This document shows positions 1 through 20,810 of a stretch of 35,529 nucleotides of DNA, in pieces. The stretch is taken from IMG/VR virus record IMGVR_UViG_2529292912_000010; one strand, given 5' to 3'. Numbering within the stretch: position 1 is the stretch's first letter; every line of letters starts with the position of its first letter. The notes under the pieces are model-generated. The model worked only from the letters and a program-made list of their open reading frames with translations. It searched no databases and had not been told where the DNA came from. The position numbers were made by a program, and so were the translations under genes. Source of the DNA: a virus. Its lineage: Duplodnaviria; Heunggongvirae; Uroviricota; Caudoviricetes.

Positions 1-1284
1 TTACAGACTTCTGGAAGGTTGCGCAGCTCTTACAACACGCGGTTGATCTTCCGCAGCGTCTTCCAGCGCACTTAAATCACGGTCTTTCACCTCTGGCATT
101 TTCAGCGCAGAGATTAAACCAATTACTGAATATGCCATGATCATAATGGCGATCGGATACCAGGATTCCGTCATGGTGCAGAAAATACCCGCCAGGATAG
201 GACCAAAACCGGAAGCGATAAGACCACCAATTTCTTTAGAAATAGCCATCCGGGTAAAGCGGTTTTTACAGCCGAACATTTCTGCCATGGTAATGTTTTC
301 CAGAGCAAATAATCCCAGCACCGCACAGTTATGAATCACAATCAGTGCAACCATAATGGTGCTCGGGGCATAGCTTTTATCTACAATGATAGAAAGCATT
401 GGCCATGCCAGCACAATCGCGGAGGTATTCATAATAATATACGGGATCCGGCGACCAATTTTATCGGATAACCAACCAAGGAACGGAATGGTCATAAAGC
501 CGAGAATCGAACTAATCATCAATGCATCTGTTGGAATTGCTTTGTTAAACAATAACGTCTGCACTAAATAGCCTGCAAGGAAAGTCTGAATTAACCCGGA
601 GTTACCCGCCTGACCAAAACGCAGCCCTGTTGCCAGCCAGAAGGATTTGCTCTGGAACATGCTACCAGCAGGTGCAGGTTTTGCTGTGGGTTGGTTGCTG
701 TCATTAACCTTCTCAAAGACCGGGCTTTCTTTCAGATTCATACGTAACCAGATAGCAAAGACCATCACGACAACGCTCGCCAGGAACGGTATACGCCATC
801 CCCACGCCAGCAGTTCCTCTTTACTGAGAATGAAGAACATAAAGGCCCAGATTGCCGTTGCGCTCAAGGTTCCGCAGTTAGTTCCCATAGCCACAAATGA
901 GGAGATAATTCCGCGCTTACCTTTTGGCGCATATTCCGCCAGCATCGTACCGGCACCGGAAATTTCCGCACCTGCACCCAACCCCTGAATAATACGCAAC
1001 GTCACCAGCAAGATGGGTGCAAAAACACCAATCTGTGCATAGGTCGGTAACACACCAATTAAGGTGGTACAGATCCCCATCATGGTGATGGTAATAAAGA
1101 GCACTTTTTTACGCCCTATTCTGTCGCCCATTTTGCCGAAAATAAATGCTCCGACAATACGCGCCACATAACCTGCACCGTAGGTTCCCATTGCCAGAAT
1201 TAACGCCATTGCCGTTGATGATTCAGGAAAAAATATTTCATGAAACACTAACGCTGCGCCGAGCGAATATAACTGGAAATCCAT
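1..1284 (-). CDS. ydfJ: MFS-family transporter (putative metabolite:H+ symporter), 427 aa, complete
   Basis: Full-length ORF with stop at 1-3; multiple hydrophobic helices; MFS loop motif G-x-x-x-D-R-x-G-R-K (GKMGDRIGRKKV) after the second helix. Position relative to ydfK/pin matches my recollection of the E. coli ydfJ-ydfK-pinQ neighbourhood. Confidence 0.85.
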   Translation of the reverse strand: MDFQLYSLGAALVFHEIFFPESSTAMALILAMGTYGAGYVARIVGAFIFGKMGDRIGRKKVLFITITMMGICTTLIGVLPTYAQIGVFAPILLVTLRIIQGLGAGAEISGAGTMLAEYAPKGKRGIISSFVAMGTNCGTLSATAIWAFMFFILSKEELLAWGWRIPFLASVVVMVFAIWLRMNLKESPVFEKVNDSNQPTAKPAPAGSMFQSKSFWLATGLRFGQAGNSGLIQTFLAGYLVQTLLFNKAIPTDALMISSILGFMTIPFLGWLSDKIGRRIPYIIMNTSAIVLAWPMLSIIVDKSYAPSTIMVALIVIHNCAVLGLFALENITMAEMFGCKNRFTRMAISKEIGGLIASGFGPILAGIFCTMTESWYPIAIMIMAYSVIGLISALKMPEVKDRDLSALEDAAEDQPRVVRAAQPSRSL

Positions 1285-2070
1285 AATTCACAGGTGTTTT
1301 TTCCCATCCTGTGGTTTCCTTGGCGTTTTCTAGGTTTTTTCAGATAGTTGCATTTTTTAAAAAGCATCCTAAGTTCGATCTCAGTGTCTATCTGGGGCCT
1401 ATTTCTGTCCCATATATGCCCCAAAAAAAACTCCCCAACAGATAAGTAGTTTTTTCATGGATTTATGCGTAAAATCAAGAACGGCTGGAAATCATTCAAT
1501 ACTCACACTATCGAAAAATTTACCAGCCAACCGCAGCACGTTCTTGCATAAGGCGTGTCTGCGGTTTTTCAACTATTCAGATACATCACTCCCATCACAT
1601 TCATTCCTCCGCATCAAAGGCATATAGGCTATATCACCTTGATATTTTTATTTTTCAGATAAAAACTGTTATCTATGTATACTTTTAAACCCAATCCGTG
1701 TAGAGTCTCTGCATAAGATAGTTTGCAGTTGCCGCTTCAGCTTGCGCCATAAACCGCCTGATTTTTGCTGCCACCTGTTAGCATTCCTGTATACCTGAAA
1801 CGACAATGTTTATCTACGAACTTTAAGAACACCCAAGATAAAAATTGTCAACTATATCATATATAACACATTACTAATTCGAGGCTATATGAACAGCATA
1901 CTGATAATCACATCTCTCCTTATCATATTCAGCATTTTTAGTCATGCCCTAATAAAATTAGGGATTGGCATATCCAATAACCCAGACAAAACCGATGTAT
2001 AAGTCAACATATCCTGAATCAGACATACAATATCGCAATGAAAATCAATAATATTTTAAGGAATATCTTC

Positions 2071-2304
2071 ATGAAATCAAAAGACACCCTAAAGTGGTTC
2101 CCTGCGCAGCTTCCTGAAGTAAGAATTATCCTAGGGGATGCTGTAGTGGAAGTAGCAAAACAGGGAAGACCTATCAATACCAGAACATTGCTTGATTACA
2201 TTGAAGGAAACATAAAGAAAAAATCATGGCTGGATAACAAAGAATTATTACAAACAGCGATATCAGTTCTTAAAGACAACCAAAATTTAAATGGTAAAAT
2301 GTAA
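2071..2304 (+). CDS. ydfK: Small prophage protein of the YdfK/YnaE family (reported cold-shock inducible), 77 aa
   Basis: ORF track gives 88 aa from an upstream ATG; the internal start MKSKDTLKWFPAQ gives the 77-aa form I recall for YdfK. Lies immediately upstream of the pin recombinase, same strand. Confidence 0.6.
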   Translation: MKSKDTLKWFPAQLPEVRIILGDAVVEVAKQGRPINTRTLLDYIEGNIKKKSWLDNKELLQTAISVLKDNQNLNGKM

Positions 2305-2620
2305 TATAATAAACTTACTTTTTTATCATTTTTCCACTTTAACAACATTTTGCTCCACTTTTCCACGACCAAACAACTTGAAATCTGGTTAAAATAACAC
2401 GCAACACTATTCTTCTTCCTTGAGTCCGCCCGGAACTCGAAAAACAAACCGAGTTAAAGCCATTTTTCACAAAATCGATTTTGGGTCTCACCAAAATTAC
2501 GGGGTTGCATACGCATTCGTTTATTTTCGAACGTGTACATACAAATATGCACAAAAATAATCAAAATTATTTTCTGAGATGCATTATGATATGAACACCA
2601 ATTTCGTATAGAGTCTCACT

Positions 2621-3211
2621 ATGTCTCGAATTTTTGCTTACTGTCGGATATCAACGCTGGATCAGACCACCGAAAATCAACGCCGGGAAATCGAAAGTGC
2701 AGGTTTTAAAATCAAACCTCAGCAAATAATCGAAGAACACATTAGCGGCTCAGCAGCAACCAGTGAGCGTCCTGGTTTTAACCGGTTGCTTGCTCGCCTG
2801 AAATGTGGTGATCAATTGATTGTGACAAAACTGGATCGCCTTGGTTGTAATGCAATGGATATCAGGAAAACAGTGGAACAACTGACCGAAACAGGTATCA
2901 GAGTGCATTGCTTAGCATTGGGGGGCATTGACCTGACCAGTCCAACAGGAAAAATGATGATGCAAGTAATTTCAGCAGTCGCTGAATTTGAACGAGACCT
3001 TTTACTTGAACGCACTCATTCCGGGATAGTAAGAGCCCGGGGCGCAGGGAAACGTTTTGGTCGACCACCTGTGTTAAATGAAGAACAGAAACAGGTGGTA
3101 TTCGAACGAATTAAGTCAGGTGTAAGTATAAGTGCCATTGCCCGGGAATTCAAAACCTCGCGGCAAACCATTTTAAGAGCCAAAGCAAAACTTCAGACAC
3201 CTGACATATAA
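2621..3211 (+). CDS. pinQ: Serine recombinase, resolvase/invertase family (putative DNA invertase), 196 aa
   Basis: N-terminal catalytic-serine motif (YCRISTLDQ), resolvase-like core, C-terminal helix-turn-helix ([18 protein letters not shown]). Adjacent to the tail fibre genes, as for Gin/Pin-type invertases. Confidence 0.85.
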
Positions 3212-3308
3212 AAAATAATCTCGGTGTGAGATGCTTTACGTCTTCCAAGCCACCTTCCTTGCCGTAAATGGAAAGATACATCTAATTATAGAATTTATAT
3301 GTTTTACC

Positions 3309-3884
3309 CTACGGCAGTGCTGGCCATTCAATATCCTGTGCAGTTGACGTATCAACACGGTTCAGCAATACCCGATACTTTTTCCATGCTTCCAGCAACG
3401 AGATTTCTTCCTCCGTTGCAATTTCCAGATCTGCAGCATCCTGAAGCGGCGCAATATGCTCACTGGCTACCTGCATCAGGCTGTTTTTTGTTTCTTCCGC
3501 CTCCCGGATCCGGAACAGTTTTTCTGCTTCCGTATCCTTCACCCAGGCTGTGCCGTTCCACTTCTGATATTCCCCTCCCGGCGATAACCAGGTAACATTT
3601 TCCGGTAACGGACCGAGTTCAGAAATAAATAACGCGTCGCCGGAAGCCACGTCATAAACCGTTTTACCCCGATGATCTTCAACGAGATGCCACGATGCCT
3701 CATCACTGTTGAAAACAGCCACGAAGCCTGCCGGAATATCTGGCGGTGCAATATCGATACTGTTTGCTGGCAGACCTGTATGAGGCGGAATATATGCGTC
3801 ACCTTCACCAATAAATTCATTAGTTCCGGCCAGCAGATTATAAATTTTTATGGTCCGTGGTTGTTCACTCATTCTGAATGCCAT
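3309..3884 (-). CDS. tfa: Tail fibre assembly protein (Tfa), 191 aa
   Basis: 191-aa ORF directly downstream of stf with stop/start overlap at 3884; sequence matches the lambda Tfa (orf-194) family as I recall it. Confidence 0.85.
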
Positions 3885-6800
3885 TATGCAAGCCTCACAA
3901 TATAGTTAAATGCGATGTTTTTGACGGTGTTTTCCGCGTTACCAGCAGCGTTAACGGTGATGGTATGTCCATGTGAACCAATCGCAACGGAGTGCGTATG
4001 AGCACCAATACCGACAGTATGTGCGTGTGCACCTGCGCTTGCAGCAGTACCCGATACAGAGTGCGTATGAGCGCCTGCAGAAGAAGTGTTAACACTGTAT
4101 TTAGAGTAATCAGGTGATCCACTTCCCGGAGCACCACTGGAACCACCTGAAACAAATGTCATCGAATGGGTATGTGCACCGGCTGAAGCAGCCGTACCGC
4201 TAACACTATGGGTATGCGCACCAGTGTTATTCGTGGATTTAGTGCCGTAATCAAACGACGATGTGGTTTTCGTCCCCAAATCCGTACTGGATACGCTGGC
4301 GCTGTGGGTGTGTGATTTAATGCCGTCCTGTTCCTGAGACAATACGGCTCGATCACTGGCGGGCTTGCCCTTAATCGTCCAGCCACGCATATCAGGGATC
4401 ACGCCTGACGGATAAGCGGCTGCAAGTTTCGGGTAAGCAGATTTGTCAAAAGTCTGCCCCTGCATCAGGGCATAACCAGACGGAACGGTATCTGATGGCC
4501 ACGGGATTGGTGCACCGACTGGATAAAACTCTGCAGGAGGATGAGCCGAGGTGTAAAGCTGCGCCCACGGCGACCAGTTTGCGTCGGTCGTATCCCGTCG
4601 TGAACGAATAAATGCCGGAGCATGAGCACCGCTTGTACCACTCCAGCCGATGAGTAACTCACCTTCGCCAACGGCTGTCATCCCTTTCAGGTGAATGATA
4701 TTTCCATACGCTGTTGGATATCCGTTGTTATACACCTCGTATAACTCAAGACCTGTTGCCCCCTGCGTATTGTCTGTCAGCGCGGTTACCCGACCTTTTG
4801 AAGACAGATTAACTGATGATACTGCTGTTCCACCTGACGGTAACGCCCCGATCTCTGATGCCGTTGGCTTATTTCTGGAGTTATAGTCCCTTCGCCAGCC
4901 AGGTGAATAATCTGTTCCGTGATTAATATAGGTAAACTGGGCGTTAGTTGTTCCACCACCAGTGGAGGTGGTCGGTGTGGTAATGCGGATCGTCATCGCT
5001 GACTTTATCCCCATTACTTCAATGACAGCTCCGGCGAGATGAATATTACCGCAGCCAGTATCAGTAATGATTTTATTATTGCCATAAGACCAGGAACCCT
5101 TGCACATCCAGTATGGATGGTTAAATGCTCCCTGAGAATCCAGCCACTCGATAAACTGTGCAGTCGTCCAGTTTCCTGTTGTTGTGCTTACTGACCCACC
5201 GAAGGCACGGCAGGCACCAATATTTTTCGTAAAGGTGTCTTTGCCAGGGATATCCGCACCGTTCTGATCTTTCTGCAGACGTTTCTCAGCATTGTCATTG
5301 ACTGCTTTCACTGCTTTCGATGTCGCAGCAAGCGTTTCAGATGCGCTGTTGGTTGCACTACTGAGCTGGACAATTCCTTTTTGTGCTGTCGTAGCGTCCT
5401 GAGCGGTATATTTCCCGTTAGCCAGGTCATACGCGGCCTTAACGGCTTTTGGCGTTGCCGCCAGTGACTCGGAAGTGCTGTTGGTCGCACTGCTGAGCTG
5501 TACTATCCCCTTTTTCGTCGTGCTCGCATCCTCAAGCGCCACGGCGGATGCAATATCCTCTGCCCGTTTTGCTGCTGTCTCGGCGCGCGTTGCCGCGGAT
5601 TCCGCCGTACTTTTGCTCTGAGCTGCCGCCGTCGCACTACCAGCTGCCTCTGTCGCCTTCGTGGATGCCGTCGTGGCGCTGCCTTTCGCTGCTGATGCCT
5701 GTCTGGTCGCCTCATCTTTTGAAGCAGACGCAGATGATGCCGATGACGCCGCCGAACTGGCGGACGATGCGGCAGCCGTTTTTGAGGATTCTGCGCTGGT
5801 TTCCGACGCTTTCGCGTTCGTCTCGGATGTCTTCGCTGCGGAAGCAGACCTCGCTGCTGCGCTGGCCTGTTCAGTGGCTTCGCCAGCCTTCGTTGTGGCT
5901 GTTGAAGCGGACGATGCGGCGCTTTCTGCCGATTTTCCGGCGGCGCTAGCACTGGCTGAGGCCTGCCCGGCACTTGTTGACGCTGCACTGGCAGACGACG
6001 CAGCCGCTGTTTTTGAGCCTGCCGCAGCTGAGGCACTCTGTTCCGCTGCCGTTTCAGAAGACCTGGCGTTTGTCTCAGACGTCTTTGCCGCCTTCGCGGA
6101 ATTGCCTGCCGCCGTTGCCGAGGAAGCGGCACTACTGGCGCTCGAGGATGCGTTCGTTTCTGATGATTTCGCTGCCTCTTTTGAGGCCGCCGCATCCCGG
6201 GCTGAGGTGGCTGCTTCTGACGCCTTCGTGGTCGCGGCGGATGCAGAAGTGGCTGCTGATTGTTGTGACGCTGCCGCATTCGTTTCTGACGTTTTCGCCG
6301 CAGCGGCACTGGTAGCTGCCGCGCTTTTTGAGGACTCTGCAGCAGCAGCACTTTTCGATGCTTCACTGGCCTTTGTTGATGCCGTTCCTGCGCTGGAAGA
6401 TGCTGACTGAGCCGACGACGCGGCCTGTCCGGCTGACGTGCTGGCTGCGCTTGCTGAGCCTGCAGCATCAGTCGCATGGGTTGCCGCCTCACGGGCTGAT
6501 GTGCCGGCATCGCTGGCTGACTTCTTCGCGGCTGCCGTGTTCTGTGCCACCACGGACGCGTTACGCGCCACCTCTTCCACCATCAGCTCAAAACGGCGCA
6601 GTGCCTCCGGACGGGCATCATCCTCCGTCATGGCACCGAGAAAATCATTCAGCGTACCGGGTCGGGAATCTTCATACACTGTGATGGTCCCGGCATGTGA
6701 CGGCGGGAATCCTTCCACCAACAGAATAACGCTGTACTGACCGTACTCAACGTCCATACTGTAACGCCCGGCTTCATCCGGATTTTCAGATGCCAGCGTG

Positions 6801-6907
6801 TTCACCACCACCGTGGTACTGTTACGTTTTGCTTTCAGCTGGATTGTGCAGTTCTGTACCGGTTTTCCTGTGCCGTCTTTCAGTACACCTGAAATTTTTA
6901 CTGCCAT
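3884..6907 (-). CDS. stf: Side tail fibre protein (Stf), about 1007 aa
   Basis: N-terminus [27 protein letters not shown] matches lambda Stf; ORF track starts two codons earlier at a GTG. Long Ala/Ser/Thr-rich repeat region, two phage tail-fibre repeats ([12 protein letters not shown]...LAAT.KAVKA), and a His-rich C-terminal tip with repeated GAHTHS motifs. Confidence 0.9.
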
Positions 6908-6916
6908 ATTCACCCC

Positions 6917-6945
6917 ACAAAAAAGCCCGCCTGAACCGGCGGGCT
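6917..6945 (-). terminator. Intrinsic terminator-like hairpin between lom and stf
   Basis: Minus-strand reading GCCCGCC-GGTTCA-GGCGGGC followed by TTTTTTGTGG; ends a few nt before the stf ribosome-binding site. Confidence 0.6.
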
Positions 6946-6971
6946 GTCATAACACTGTGTTACCTGGCTAA

Positions 6972-7571
6972 TCAGAATTTATAACCAACACCCACGATGA
7001 ACCCGTCAGTGCGCCAGTCACCACTGCCGGAGCCTTCATAAGCGACATCAATGGCCACGGATTCGGTCGGGTTAAACTGCACGCCAGCTCCCCACGCCAG
7101 AGACGTGTTGCTGTGGCGACCGTCATCACTTCCGGTCAGCACATCGTGCTTTTTCCCCTTGTTGTCAGTTACGCGGAGATAATCCCCGGAGAAAGTCGAC
7201 ACACGGCTGTAAGCCACACCCGCCATCGCATACGCGCTGAACCATTCATTCACGCGCACAGACGGCCCCGCCATTACGCTGAACCAGCGGTTACGAACGG
7301 AATCTTCATGCCAGCGGGTATCGCTGTAACGGGTAATCTGGCGATTCTTGTCTCCTGCATAGCTGAACGACGTCACCATCCCCAGTGTGTCCGTAAACTC
7401 ATAACGGTATTTCACGTTAATCCCGTTCAGATCATCACTGCCGGGAACGTTCGTCCGGGCATGAAGATACCCCGCGCTCAGCGTGGACTGATGTTCAGAC
7501 GCCCATGCAGGCGCACCGGATACGGCCAGACAAATGGCTGCGGACAAAATGGCGGCATAAAGTTTACGCAT
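6972..7571 (-). CDS. lom: Outer-membrane beta-barrel protein Lom (Ail/Lom family), 199 aa
   Basis: Signal peptide ([24 protein letters not shown]), alternating beta-strand pattern, C-terminal aromatic residue (ends GVGYKF); sits between J and stf as in lambda. Confidence 0.85.
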
Positions 7572-7593
7572 AATTACCTCTCGCTTTTCTGCA

Positions 7594-7619
7594 ATAAAAA
7601 AGGCGTCATTTCTGACGCC
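7594..7619 (-). terminator. Intrinsic terminator-like hairpin between J and lom
   Basis: Minus-strand GGCGTCA-GAAA-TGACGCC followed by TTTTTTATT, about 26 nt upstream of the lom ATG. Confidence 0.6.
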
Positions 7620-7637
7620 CGTTCTGGGTTATAAAAT

Positions 7638-11039
<3,402 letters not shown>

Positions 11040-19396: not shown

Positions 19397-20422
19397 TTAC
19401 GCCAGTTGTACGGAAACGAACTCATCAGGGTCAGCCAGCAGCATCAGCGGTGCTGACTGAATCATGGTGAACTCACGCGCCGGATCGCCGGTGGTCACCC
19501 AGTTTTTCGGGTAACGGGCAGAGGCGTTAATGCCTTCGCGCTGTGCGTCCGCATCCTGAATGCAGCCATAGGTGCGCAGACCGCGAGCCTGAGTGTTCCC
19601 CAGCACCATCGTGTTGTCCGGCAGGAAGTTCTTTTTGACGCCGTTTTCCACGTACTGTCCGGAATACACGACGATGGCCACATCGCCATACATTCCCTTA
19701 TAGGACACCGCTTTGCCCAGGTCTTTTACCGCTGTCTCCAGCTCGGAATGAGAGCCGCGACGGGTATCCAGCTTCTCCTTGACGGCTTTGAAGGAACGGA
19801 ACAGCGCCCAGCCTTTCGGATCGAACACGATGATATTCACCACGCCGCTGGCGTTCAGCGCGTAGGCTTCGATATCGTCGGTCGGGTCATACGTGGACTT
19901 GTCACGCTTGCTCCACTCCGTGCCGCCGGACTGCGTGATGTTGTTCGCCGCACTGCGGCCCATATCCACCTCAACCGGATCGAAGGCTTCACCGGTCATG
20001 GTGTATTTGCCCTTGAGCACGGCAGAAACGGCCTGCATCTCTTCAACCTGAGCAATGGCCAGCTCTTCGTCTCGCATGTTCTGCATGATGATGCGACGGC
20101 GGCGGTAAGCCGGGTCCGCCAGATTCTGTGGATCTTCATCCGGCAGGCGACGCAGGGTCATCTGCGGATTCACCTCATGCTTCGGCTTGACATATCCCGG
20201 TGTAAATTCAGAGGTGGAGCCGCCACGGGAGCGGATAACCTCACCGGAAACAATCGGCGAAACGTACAGCGCCATGTTTACCAGTCCCGGAATTTGTGAG
20301 AGATAGACTTTCTCCGTGGTGAAGGGATAGCTCTCACGGAAAAAGAGACGCAGAAACAGCGGATCAAACTTAAATTTCTGCTCATTTGCCGCCAGCAGCT
20401 GGGCGGTTGTGTACATCGACAT
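19397..20422 (-). CDS. E: Major capsid protein E (HK97 fold), 341 aa
   Basis: Start at MSMYTTAQLLAANEQ; ORF track extends 9 codons upstream; ends ...DPDEFVSVQLA as recalled for lambda E. Confidence 0.95.
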   Translation of the reverse strand: MSMYTTAQLLAANEQKFKFDPLFLRLFFRESYPFTTEKVYLSQIPGLVNMALYVSPIVSGEVIRSRGGSTSEFTPGYVKPKHEVNPQMTLRRLPDEDPQNLADPAYRRRRIIMQNMRDEELAIAQVEEMQAVSAVLKGKYTMTGEAFDPVEVDMGRSAANNITQSGGTEWSKRDKSTYDPTDDIEAYALNASGVVNIIVFDPKGWALFRSFKAVKEKLDTRRGSHSELETAVKDLGKAVSYKGMYGDVAIVVYSGQYVENGVKKNFLPDNTMVLGNTQARGLRTYGCIQDADAQREGINASARYPKNWVTTGDPAREFTMIQSAPLMLLADPDEFVSVQLA

Positions 20423-20477
20423 AAAAAAATCCCGTAAAAAAAGCCGCACAGGCGGCCTTTAGTGATGAAGGGTCAGG

Positions 20478-20810
20478 TTAAACGATGCTGATTGCCGTTC
20501 CGGCAAACGCGGTCCGTTTTTTCGCCTCGTCGCTGGCAGCCTCCGGCCAGAGCACATCCTCATAACGGAACGTGCCGGACTTGTAGAACGTCAGTGTGGT
20601 GCTGGTCTGGTCAGCAGCAACCGCAAGAATGCCAACGGCAGCACCGTCGGTGGTGCCATCCCACGCAACCAGCTTACGGGTGGAGGTGTCCAGCATCAGC
20701 GGGGTCATTGCAGGCGCTTTCGCACTCAATCCGCCGGGCGCGGTTGCGGTATGAGCCGGGTCACTATTGCCCAGCGGCTGGTAATGGGTAAAGGTTTCTT
20801 TGCTCGTCAT
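20478..20810 (-). CDS. D: Capsid decoration protein D, 110 aa
   Basis: [12 protein letters not shown]... matches lambda gpD as recalled. Confidence 0.9.

Follow-up and report, generated by a model that had tools for sequence, protein, structure and literature searches.

The window analyzed here (35,529 nt; IMG/VR record IMGVR_UViG_2529292912_000010, Caudoviricetes) contains a lambda-type prophage of E. coli. This prophage occupies the chromosomal position of Qin, with pinQ and tfaQ, and the site is flanked by a truncated ydfJ, by ydfK, and by pinQ. Its late operon is complete and of lambda type, and is recognizable by Pfam from Nu1, A, portal, protease, capsid E, V, and H. The side tail fiber gene, stf, lies in this operon within the gene order J-lom-stf-tfa. 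A tRNA scan found none. The features of the stf locus are the following:

3884..6907, minus strand: stf, side tail fiber gene, intact, 1007 aa plus stop (single ORF; Pfam PF08400, PF03406, PF07484)
6626..6907, minus strand: N-terminal collar domain, aa 1-94 (PDB 9E7M, lambda tail fiber protein, residues 1-94, E 1.3e-51)
5549..6541, minus strand: Ser/Ala-rich heptad coiled coil, aa 123-453, 993 nt, the predicted proximal fiber rod (autocorrelation, single phase)
5684..5998, minus strand: 105-aa (15-heptad) segment, aa 304-408, absent from lambda Stf (global alignment)
5261..5524, minus strand: two 44-aa Phage_fiber_2 repeats, aa 462-505 and 506-549, a probable hinge and mosaic junction (PF03406)
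4823..5293, minus strand: distal shaft domain like the phage Mu tail fiber S/S', aa 539-695 (PDB 8JU3, Mu S,S', stretch E 4e-69; 5YVQ, 9.7e-16)
4547..4834, minus strand: segment like the variable part (Sv) of the P1/P7 tail fiber S, aa 692-787 (tblastn)
3887..4528, minus strand: T4 gp37-type receptor-binding tip, aa 794-1007, with collar domain and needle (PDB 2XGF; PF07484 Collar, 6.9e-12)
4070..4165, minus strand: variable head cassette between HxH 3 and HxH 4, aa 915-946 (hypervariable among close homologues)
3309..3884, minus strand: tfa, tail fiber assembly chaperone (PF02413, 9.8e-43)
2621..3211, plus strand: pinQ-like serine DNA invertase (PF00239, PF02796; phrog_125 DNA invertase; annotated pinQ)

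The stf coding sequence runs uninterrupted on the minus strand from an ATG at position 6907 to a stop codon at 3884-3886, which overlaps the ATG of tfa (ATG/TAA overlap confirmed). A GTG at 6913, two codons upstream of this ATG, would extend the ORF to 1009 aa. Residue numbers in this work follow the ATG, while the amino acid composition windows and motif counts were taken in the GTG-numbered ORF. The corresponding RefSeq CDS in strain PEC389 has identical bounds (3884-6907) and differs by 1 nt from the sequence studied here; it carries a nonsense codon and is annotated as a pseudogene, and the window copy is free of that codon. Given such a near-identical pseudogene, selection on stf in lysogens may be weak. 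That the gene encodes a side tail fiber, as originally proposed, was borne out by the gene order, by a match to PF08400 (the stf N-terminal domain) that covers the whole profile with an E value of 1.4e-71, and by the similarity of residues 1-94 to the lambda Stf collar, with 87 of these 94 residues identical. In Ur-lambda, the organization of Stf was reported as a collar (residues 1-91), a linker, a proximal coiled coil (residues 102-393), and a hinge, with the N-terminal domain docking the fiber on the tail tube/tip junction and 12 Stf copies making four fibers (PMC12617516).

The central portion of the protein, which is homologous to this proximal coiled coil of lambda Stf (residues 102-393; PMC12617516), had been described as an Ala/Ser/Thr-rich repeat array of low complexity, slippage-prone, and with recurring peptide units. 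The peptide units are indeed there, as AAKTSETNA occurs three times and a second motif of 12 residues twice, and Ala, Ser, and Thr together account for 70-80% of residues in 50-aa windows over aa 151-450 of the 1009-aa ORF. What these units belong to, however, is a phase-perfect SAxxAxx heptad coiled coil, as judged from its sequence, and not a low-complexity tandem array. Forty-seven SAxxAxx heptads follow each other without a break (or 48 if one counts from one conserved anchor, VARNAS, to the other, AEDIASA), a single heptad phase is kept throughout, and protein autocorrelation peaks at every multiple of seven residues, with z scores of 7.7-10.4 compared to shuffled sequences. An AlphaFold2 monomer model predicts one helix over aa 98-476 (mean pLDDT 73.7). 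We considered higher-order units of 70, 84, 105, 112, and 154 aa and rejected them, because the highest z score obtained was 2.8 after shuffling within heptad positions. Global alignment to a rebuilt Ur-lambda Stf showed one clean gap of 105 aa, flanked by segments in which 174/209 and 69/82 residues are identical (83-84%), and it is because of this one insertion that the coil counts 48 heptads here vs. 33 in lambda.

The similarity to lambda stops at the Phage_fiber_2 repeats. There are two of these, as had been noticed in the original prediction (PF03406, two stretches, E 1.3e-35), with 76% identity between the copies at the protein level and 67% at the DNA level. Only a single, fused copy is present in 11 of the 121 sequences that comprise 120 homologues and the query, so that close relatives are polymorphic for one vs. 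two copies. Engineered Stf chimeras were joined at R393 (PMC11338833), the same place as the natural junction seen here. Beyond it, aa 490-695 match the Mu S/S' structures (8JU3, 5YVQ), and aa 692-787 are approximately 70% identical to the S proteins of P7 and P1 encoded inside the invertible C segments. The last 214 aa of Stf align end to end with T4 gp37 (PDB 2XGF, E 4.8e-86), including an identical C-terminal strand of 15 residues. The His-rich nature of this tip was also correctly anticipated, in that it carries seven HxH motifs, four of which are the exact string GAHTHS, and all seven HxH columns (7/7) align with the iron-binding ones of gp37. In gp37, the needle holds seven irons, and residues 933-953 contact the receptor (PMC6957217).

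In the T4/lambda family of receptor-binding tips, conserved flanks surround a specificity segment of 30-70 aa (PMC9659904), and the tip of this Stf is built in the same way. Identity to gp37 and lambda is 77-79% in the flanks (77-78% for gp37), while in the cassette at aa 915-946 it drops to 23% for gp37 and 15% for lambda. When 120 homologues with 90-97% identity were compared, aa 901-950, which align with the receptor-contacting residues 933-953 of gp37 (PMC6957217), were the only hypervariable stretch, with an identity of about 0.5 and at least six cassette types, whereas the coil was 91-98% conserved. The cassette type found in the window is present in 619 of 5426 E. coli genomes. These data argue against the view that the central array sets receptor specificity. 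Instead, host recognition is expected to reside in a small, swappable segment of the His-rich tip, and from its alignment the cassette at aa 915-946 is presumed to be the receptor-contact segment. Structure prediction of the C-terminal 250 aa, which had been recommended as a check, was performed on a monomer with a 12-sequence alignment and returned an unusable model (mean pLDDT 33.6), an outcome to be anticipated for an intertwined trimer that depends on a chaperone.

The original suggestion amounts to a model in which the central array would be a tandem repeat with a high mutation rate, where slippage or unequal recombination would alter copy number and hence tune receptor specificity and host range. 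We consider this very unlikely, even though several observations could be read in its favor, namely the units themselves, the one- vs. two-copy state of the 44-aa fiber repeat, in-frame coil indels of 1-6 aa and also of 28 and 49 aa among close homologues, and a coil length that differs widely across the family. Periodicity at the nucleotide level, on which the original prediction had staked itself, is in fact detectable but weak, with a mean identity of 0.44 at multiples of 21 nt vs. 0.37 at other in-frame lags, and with six of the nine 21-nt-multiple lags up to 189 nt reaching z > 4 (range 4.2-5.8). Tandem Repeats Finder, however, returned only two 9-nt mini-arrays of 2-2.8 copies over positions 3500-7500, and a true tandem array was rejected on these grounds. 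Nowhere in the gene does an exact direct repeat exceed 14 nt, which is no more than codon-shuffled coils produce (mean 12, maximum 17). Where a peptide motif recurs unchanged, its copies agree at only 67-78% of bases, the best 35-aa diagonals agree at 48-59%, and above the heptad no unit reaches significance. The coil is also stable across E. coli, being found at ≥80% coverage in 3602 of 5426 complete genomes, and in a spread sample of full-length matches (n = 10), eight spanned 993 nt and two 990 nt, that is, one codon less. Conservation of the coil where the tip head is only about 50% identical is likewise difficult to reconcile with a hypermutable determinant of specificity. What does stand is that fiber length varies across the family, as the distance between anchors ranges from 83 to 336 aa among diverse representatives, with classes at 112, 224, 231, and 336 aa (16, 32, 33, and 48 heptads) in addition to 83 aa, which is not a multiple of seven. 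Such distance is a multiple of seven in 13 of 16 diverse representatives and in 81 of 117 close homologues, most commonly 336 aa. The remaining 36 of the 117 differ by small indels, which means that stutters are tolerated in the coil or that some of the copies are damaged. Because no 112-aa unit is significant in this coil, the 112/224/336 series among representatives is left without that explanation. A rather improbable reading of the same data is that coil length acts as a selected, quantized ruler, where the 15-heptad insertion might match the reach of the fiber to the thickness of the O-antigen or capsule layer of the host, with host range then depending on rod length and head cassette together.

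The neighborhood of the gene raises two further questions. Because the distal segments resemble Mu S' (8JU3) and P1/P7 Sv, both located within invertible segments, and because a Pin-type serine invertase lies approximately 100 bp beyond tfa, one could propose that the adjoining enzyme actively inverts distal stf together with tfa and in this way switches host range, as in the Mu G, P1 C, and e14 P systems. We regard such an arrangement as extremely improbable. No gix/hix/cix-like site was found within 3 mismatches, nor within 8 mismatches in or near stf, tfa, and pin, and no inverted repeat of at least 18 nt was found in 1200-7700, the latter scan being the stronger test. The search for a second, oppositely oriented fiber C-terminus with its own tfa returned nothing, with a single tfa separated from pin by a gap of only 97 bp. 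An invertible segment was therefore rejected for lack of such sites and inverted repeats, and the pinQ-like invertase is apparently without a substrate here. This lack of a detectable substrate, the location at the Qin site next to a truncated ydfJ, to ydfK, and to pinQ, and the internal stop of the PEC389 pseudogene only 1 nt away could also suggest that stf is the decaying remnant of a cryptic prophage that makes no functional fiber, and that the features described here are of historical value only. That, too, is unlikely in our opinion. The stf of the window reads through 1007 aa without interruption and overlaps tfa at the level of translation. None of the seven HxH motifs has been lost, the heptad phase is undisturbed, Pfam recognizes the whole lambda-type late operon, and the deposited phage genome PhiR26_1 encodes a Stf that is 93% identical. 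We are confident that stf is an ordinary, intact side tail fiber gene of a lambda-like E. coli prophage, assembled as a mosaic of known modules.

For such an intact gene, a working model of the fiber can be outlined from its homologues. From homology with Ur-lambda, three Stf chains would form one fiber, with the N-terminal domains assembled into a collar of 12 subunits where the tail tube meets the tip, yielding four fibers per virion. After a short linker, a trimeric coiled coil of alpha helices is predicted, to which each chain would contribute 48 Ser/Ala-rich heptads with both core positions occupied by Ala, the trimeric state being that of the homologues. The rod would act as a rigid spacer, and we estimate that the 15-heptad insertion would make it approximately 15 nm longer than that of lambda. 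The two Phage_fiber_2 repeats follow as hinge and as the junction for module exchange, and the distal shaft is built, by homology, of Mu S'- and P1 Sv-type segments. The tip would be a needle of the T4 gp37 type, in which each chain brings seven HxH motifs that, if it behaves as its homologues do, would bind seven metal ions, these being iron in gp37; the product of the overlapping tfa is expected to be the chaperone that folds it, and the head cassette, of about 32 aa, would contact the host surface receptor. Host-range variation appears, with part of this directly demonstrated here, to proceed mainly through swaps of the head cassette and of whole distal modules, with slippage of rod repeats not the main route.

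All parts of this picture are already known, and the current understanding of these fibers is unchanged. The closest comparison is with Ur-lambda, whose Stf of 774 aa is represented in lambda PaPa by orf-401 and orf-314. The two systems have in common the locus order, the collar domain, the coil flanks, and Tfa (96% identical), and their fiber proteins also agree in heptad phase, in having a Phage_fiber_2 repeat, and in the conserved flanks of a gp37-type tip. The differences are that two fiber repeats are present here and one in lambda, that seven HxH motifs are found in place of eight, that the lambda distal domain (approximately aa 394-560) is replaced by the Mu S'- and P1 Sv-like segments, and that the head cassettes are unrelated. 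Phage PhiR26_1, whose listed host is MG1655, resembles our sequence over the full length of Stf and has the same anchor distance of 336 aa, but carries a different head cassette, of the RDGRRFNPSVF type. As for StfR (Rac) and StfQ (Qin) of E. coli K-12, this 993-nt coil carries the annotation stfR in many genomes, a likeness at the level of annotation. With T4 gp37, only the tip is shared and the rest of that protein is unrelated; the head segment of Stf is seven residues shorter, and the chaperone is a lambda-type Tfa rather than gp38/gp57A. Mu and P1 likewise have a Pin/Gin/Cin-type invertase gene adjoining the fiber genes, but, compared to their invertible G and C segments, neither crossover sites nor inverted repeats nor an alternative cassette are seen here, and it is a lambda collar domain that links the fiber to its virion, that of a siphovirus.

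Lambda-like side tail fibers speed adsorption. For annotation, our results indicate that stf in the window is intact, unlike the copy in the nearest RefSeq genome, PEC389, and that its rod is a stable coiled coil and not a mutable array. Differences in host range should be looked for in the 32-aa head cassette (4070-4165) and at the fiber-repeat junction. Side tail fibers have also been engineered to retarget phage-derived delivery particles (PMC11338833).

Several long ORFs overlap stf in other frames, one of 335 aa on the minus strand and others of 249, 133, 118, 113, and 100 aa on the plus strand, and had been suspected of being spurious products of the repeats. We agree that they are spurious, in that open frames of similar length arise in codon-shuffled coils. 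Shuffling never closes the +1 sense frame, and in one antisense frame it leaves an average of 232 codons, vs. 262 observed. Overlapping genes were rejected on this basis, and these long alternative-frame ORFs are artifacts of codon composition. In lambda, the annotated orf206b sits at the equivalent antisense position.

Our analysis confirmed what the original prediction had observed in the sequence at 3884-6907, which is a real open reading frame on the minus strand, but did not support its reading of a slippage-prone array that sets receptor specificity. The gene is stf, encoding the side tail fibre, and sits in the following locus:

2621-3211, plus strand, Pin-type (pinQ-like) serine DNA invertase, 97 bp beyond tfa
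3309-3884, minus strand, tfa (tail fibre assembly chaperone), its ATG overlapping the stf stop
3884-6907, minus strand, stf, ATG at 6907, TAA at 3884-3886, 1007 aa
5261-5524, minus strand, two 44-aa Phage_fiber_2 repeats (Pfam)
5549-6541, minus strand, heptad segment (rod) of stf, aa 123-453, 993 nt
6972-7571, minus strand, lom, between J and stf
7638-11036, minus strand, J, first in the order J, lom, stf, tfa

A GTG two codons upstream of the stf ATG yields the 1009-aa version found in the ORF list; ATG numbering is used here unless stated.

The centre of the protein is indeed rich in Ala, Ser and Thr, which make up 70-80% of residues in 50-aa windows over aa 151-450 (GTG numbering), and does contain recurring peptides, with AAKTSETNA present three times and a 12-residue string twice. 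When aa 123-453 are arranged in rows of seven, the pattern S-A-x-x-A-x-x runs through 47 heptads with zero phase shifts, and residue autocorrelation reaches approximately 0.41-0.47 at each multiple of seven versus approximately 0.2 elsewhere (z = 7.7-10.4 against shuffles). No repeat unit longer than the heptad was significant upon shuffling within each heptad position (maximum z 2.8), and the nine- and twelve-residue peptides that recur echo the heptad pattern locally and do not build a tandem array. When aa 90-479 were modelled as a monomer with AlphaFold2, a single helix spanned aa 98-476 (mean pLDDT 73.7). For Ur-lambda Stf, a 2025 cryo-EM/cryo-ET study described a collar domain (residues 1-91), a flexible linker (92-101) and a trimeric proximal coiled coil (102-393) followed by a hinge, with 12 copies making four fibres (PMC12617516). 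The Stf studied here would trimerise as well.

At the DNA level, Tandem Repeats Finder returned just two 9-nt arrays of 2-2.8 copies, and no exact direct repeat anywhere in the gene exceeds 14 nt, compared with 12 nt on average and 17 nt at most in codon-shuffled coils. Base identity is 74-78% among the three AAKTSETNA copies and 67% between the two copies of the 12-residue string, and the best internal 35-aa matches have only 48-59% of bases in common. The nucleotide periodicity anticipated in the original prediction does exist, if narrowly, as a weak 21-nt signal (mean identity 0.44 at such lags versus 0.37 at other in-frame lags; z of 4.2-5.8 at six of nine lags that are multiples of 21 nt), but it mirrors the protein heptad and lends no support to slippage. 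Of 5426 complete E. coli genomes, 3602 carry the 993-nt coil, often annotated as stfR, at a coverage of at least 80%, and full-length matches in a spread sample of ten measured 993 nt in eight cases and 990 nt in two. Both conserved anchors, VARNAS and AEDIASA, are present in 117 close protein homologues; in 81 of these the distance between them is divisible by seven, 336 aa being the commonest value, and the remaining close homologues show small indels (for example, of 3 or 6 aa within a run of (ASS)n) or deletions of 28 or 49 aa. Diverse family representatives have anchor distances of 83, 112, 224, 231 and 336 aa, with multiples of seven in 13 of 16. Such short exact repeats, low base identity and stable length argue against a slippage-prone array; the rod is stable across genomes and, judged by its DNA, mostly not prone to slippage, and its length changes over evolutionary time mostly by whole heptads. 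Fibre length therefore does vary, in line with the original prediction, as shown by anchor distances of 83-336 aa and by fibre repeats in one or two copies, but these data support rare events, not a mutable array.

One such difference separates this Stf from that of lambda. Using orf-401 and orf-314 (NC_001416), we reconstructed Ur-lambda Stf (774 aa), which aligns collinearly with the Stf studied here to approximately aa 490; identical residues number 87/94 in the collar domain, and 174/209 and 69/82 in the two flanks of the coil. The sole difference over this stretch is that lambda lacks aa 304-408, a clean gap of 105 residues. Anchor distances of 336 aa here and 231 aa in lambda, or 48 versus 33 heptads, make the insertion exactly 15 heptads. 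With the textbook coiled-coil rise of approximately 0.148 nm per residue, it would lengthen the rod by roughly 15 nm.

Variation that could bear on receptor specificity resides instead in the predicted GAHTHS-repeat tip, which we confirmed: seven HxH motifs lie in the last 140 residues, and four of these belong to an exact GAHTHS. In an alignment of the 120 best database matches (90-97% identical overall), conservation was 91-100% in all 25-residue blocks bar three; the two blocks at the second fibre repeat (aa 501-550) were 84-87% conserved, and the real outlier was aa 901-950, where identity to our sequence drops to 0.51-0.56 and a 22-aa insertion is present in most sequences. At least six unrelated cassettes occur between HxH motifs three and four; the one found here is present in 619 of 5426 E. 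coli genomes and, counting the query along with its 120 homologues, in 16 of 121 sequences. Over its final 214 residues, the protein matches the crystal-structure sequence of the receptor-binding tip of T4 gp37 (PDB 2XGF, E 4.8e-86) with all seven HxH motifs aligned, and flanks are 77-78% identical whereas the head segment is only 23% identical; for lambda, the respective values are 79% and 15%. The gp37 needle has seven iron ions along its length, coordinated by the HxH motifs, and gp37 contacts LPS and OmpC through residues 933-953, aligned with the variable cassette of this Stf (PMC6957217). Conserved flanks bracketing a specificity segment of 30-70 aa typify the T4/lambda receptor-binding protein family (PMC9659904). 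The gp37 alignment and the conserved-flank pattern point to a known kind of metal-stapled needle, which here too would bind metal, and the head of the tip, not the Ala/Ser rod, is likely the receptor determinant. Monomer structure prediction of the C-terminal 250 aa was uninformative (pLDDT 33.6, unusable), as expected for an intertwined trimer.

The two predicted fibre repeats, also confirmed, are cleanly fused into one in 11 of the 121 sequences, which looks like an unequal-crossover polymorphism at the hinge. Similarity to lambda stops just past the first repeat, the same place where engineered lambda-P2 Stf chimeras were joined (lambda R393; PMC11338833). Residues 490-695 match phage Mu fibre S and S' (PDB 8JU3, E 4e-69 for the stretch; 5YVQ), and aa 692-787 share approximately 70% identity with the variable portion of gpS from P1/P7, located in those phages inside invertible C segments. 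A Mu/P1-type ancestry of the distal Stf, as these matches suggest, would explain the neighbouring invertase. An active invertible switch at stf was ruled out, as neither gix-, hix- or cix-like sites near the locus, nor inverted repeats of at least 18 nt in window 1200-7700, nor a second tfa or alternative fibre end were found. Because no crossover site, inverted repeat or alternative fibre cassette is detectable, the pinQ-like invertase looks like an orphan remnant of a Mu/P1-type invertible host-range module.

The long ORFs overlapping stf (335 aa in another frame of the same strand; 249, 133, 118, 113 and 100 aa on the opposite strand), rightly called spurious beforehand, were rejected as genes, being by-products of GCN/TCN/ACN-rich coding. 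When codon order in the coil was shuffled, in fact, the +1 sense frame stayed open in every shuffle, one antisense frame averaged 232 codons versus 262 observed, and the other frames fell within the shuffled range. NC_001416 carries an annotated orf206b (20147-20767, minus strand) antisense to the lambda Stf coil, and our results suggest that ORFs of this kind arise from composition alone.

The closest public sequence is that of E. coli strain PEC389, where the flanking truncated ydfJ, ynfT, ydfK, pinQ and tfaQ mark the Qin prophage site. Its stf differs by one base, at window 5581 (codon 443), where A replaces the C found here; this single change creates a stop codon, and RefSeq labels the PEC389 copy a pseudogene for this reason. 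The stf in the window lacks that stop and is intact. Its Tfa is 96% identical to lambda Tfa, and the deposited phage genome PhiR26_1 (listed host MG1655) encodes an Stf that is 93% identical, shares the 336-aa coil and differs in its head cassette; stf is thus most likely functional. Public genomes already have this allele annotated, and every module has a characterised homologue. A well-known gene was correctly spotted.

Elsewhere in the window lies a recognisable lambda-type late operon with Nu1, terminase A, portal, protease, capsid E, tail tube V, tape measure, lysozyme and Q; directly upstream of the Q antiterminator gene, 33250-34338 (minus strand) encodes a 362-aa DUF968-domain protein. 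A truncated ydfJ transporter gene (1-1284, minus strand) marks the prophage end, followed by 1.3 kb of AT-rich DNA (1285-2620, 32-37% G+C), where annotation of the near-identical genome places two small genes, ynfT and ydfK. A full-length match to the candidate small RNA IS009 (Rfam RF02111, 221 bits) at 3343-3541 (minus strand) falls wholly within the tfa ORF and on its coding strand. The cspA thermoregulator 5' leader (RF01766) is matched over its full length twice, at 28425-28809 and 31318-31710 (both minus strand; 116 and 159 bits), which implies two cold-shock protein genes in the prophage cargo.
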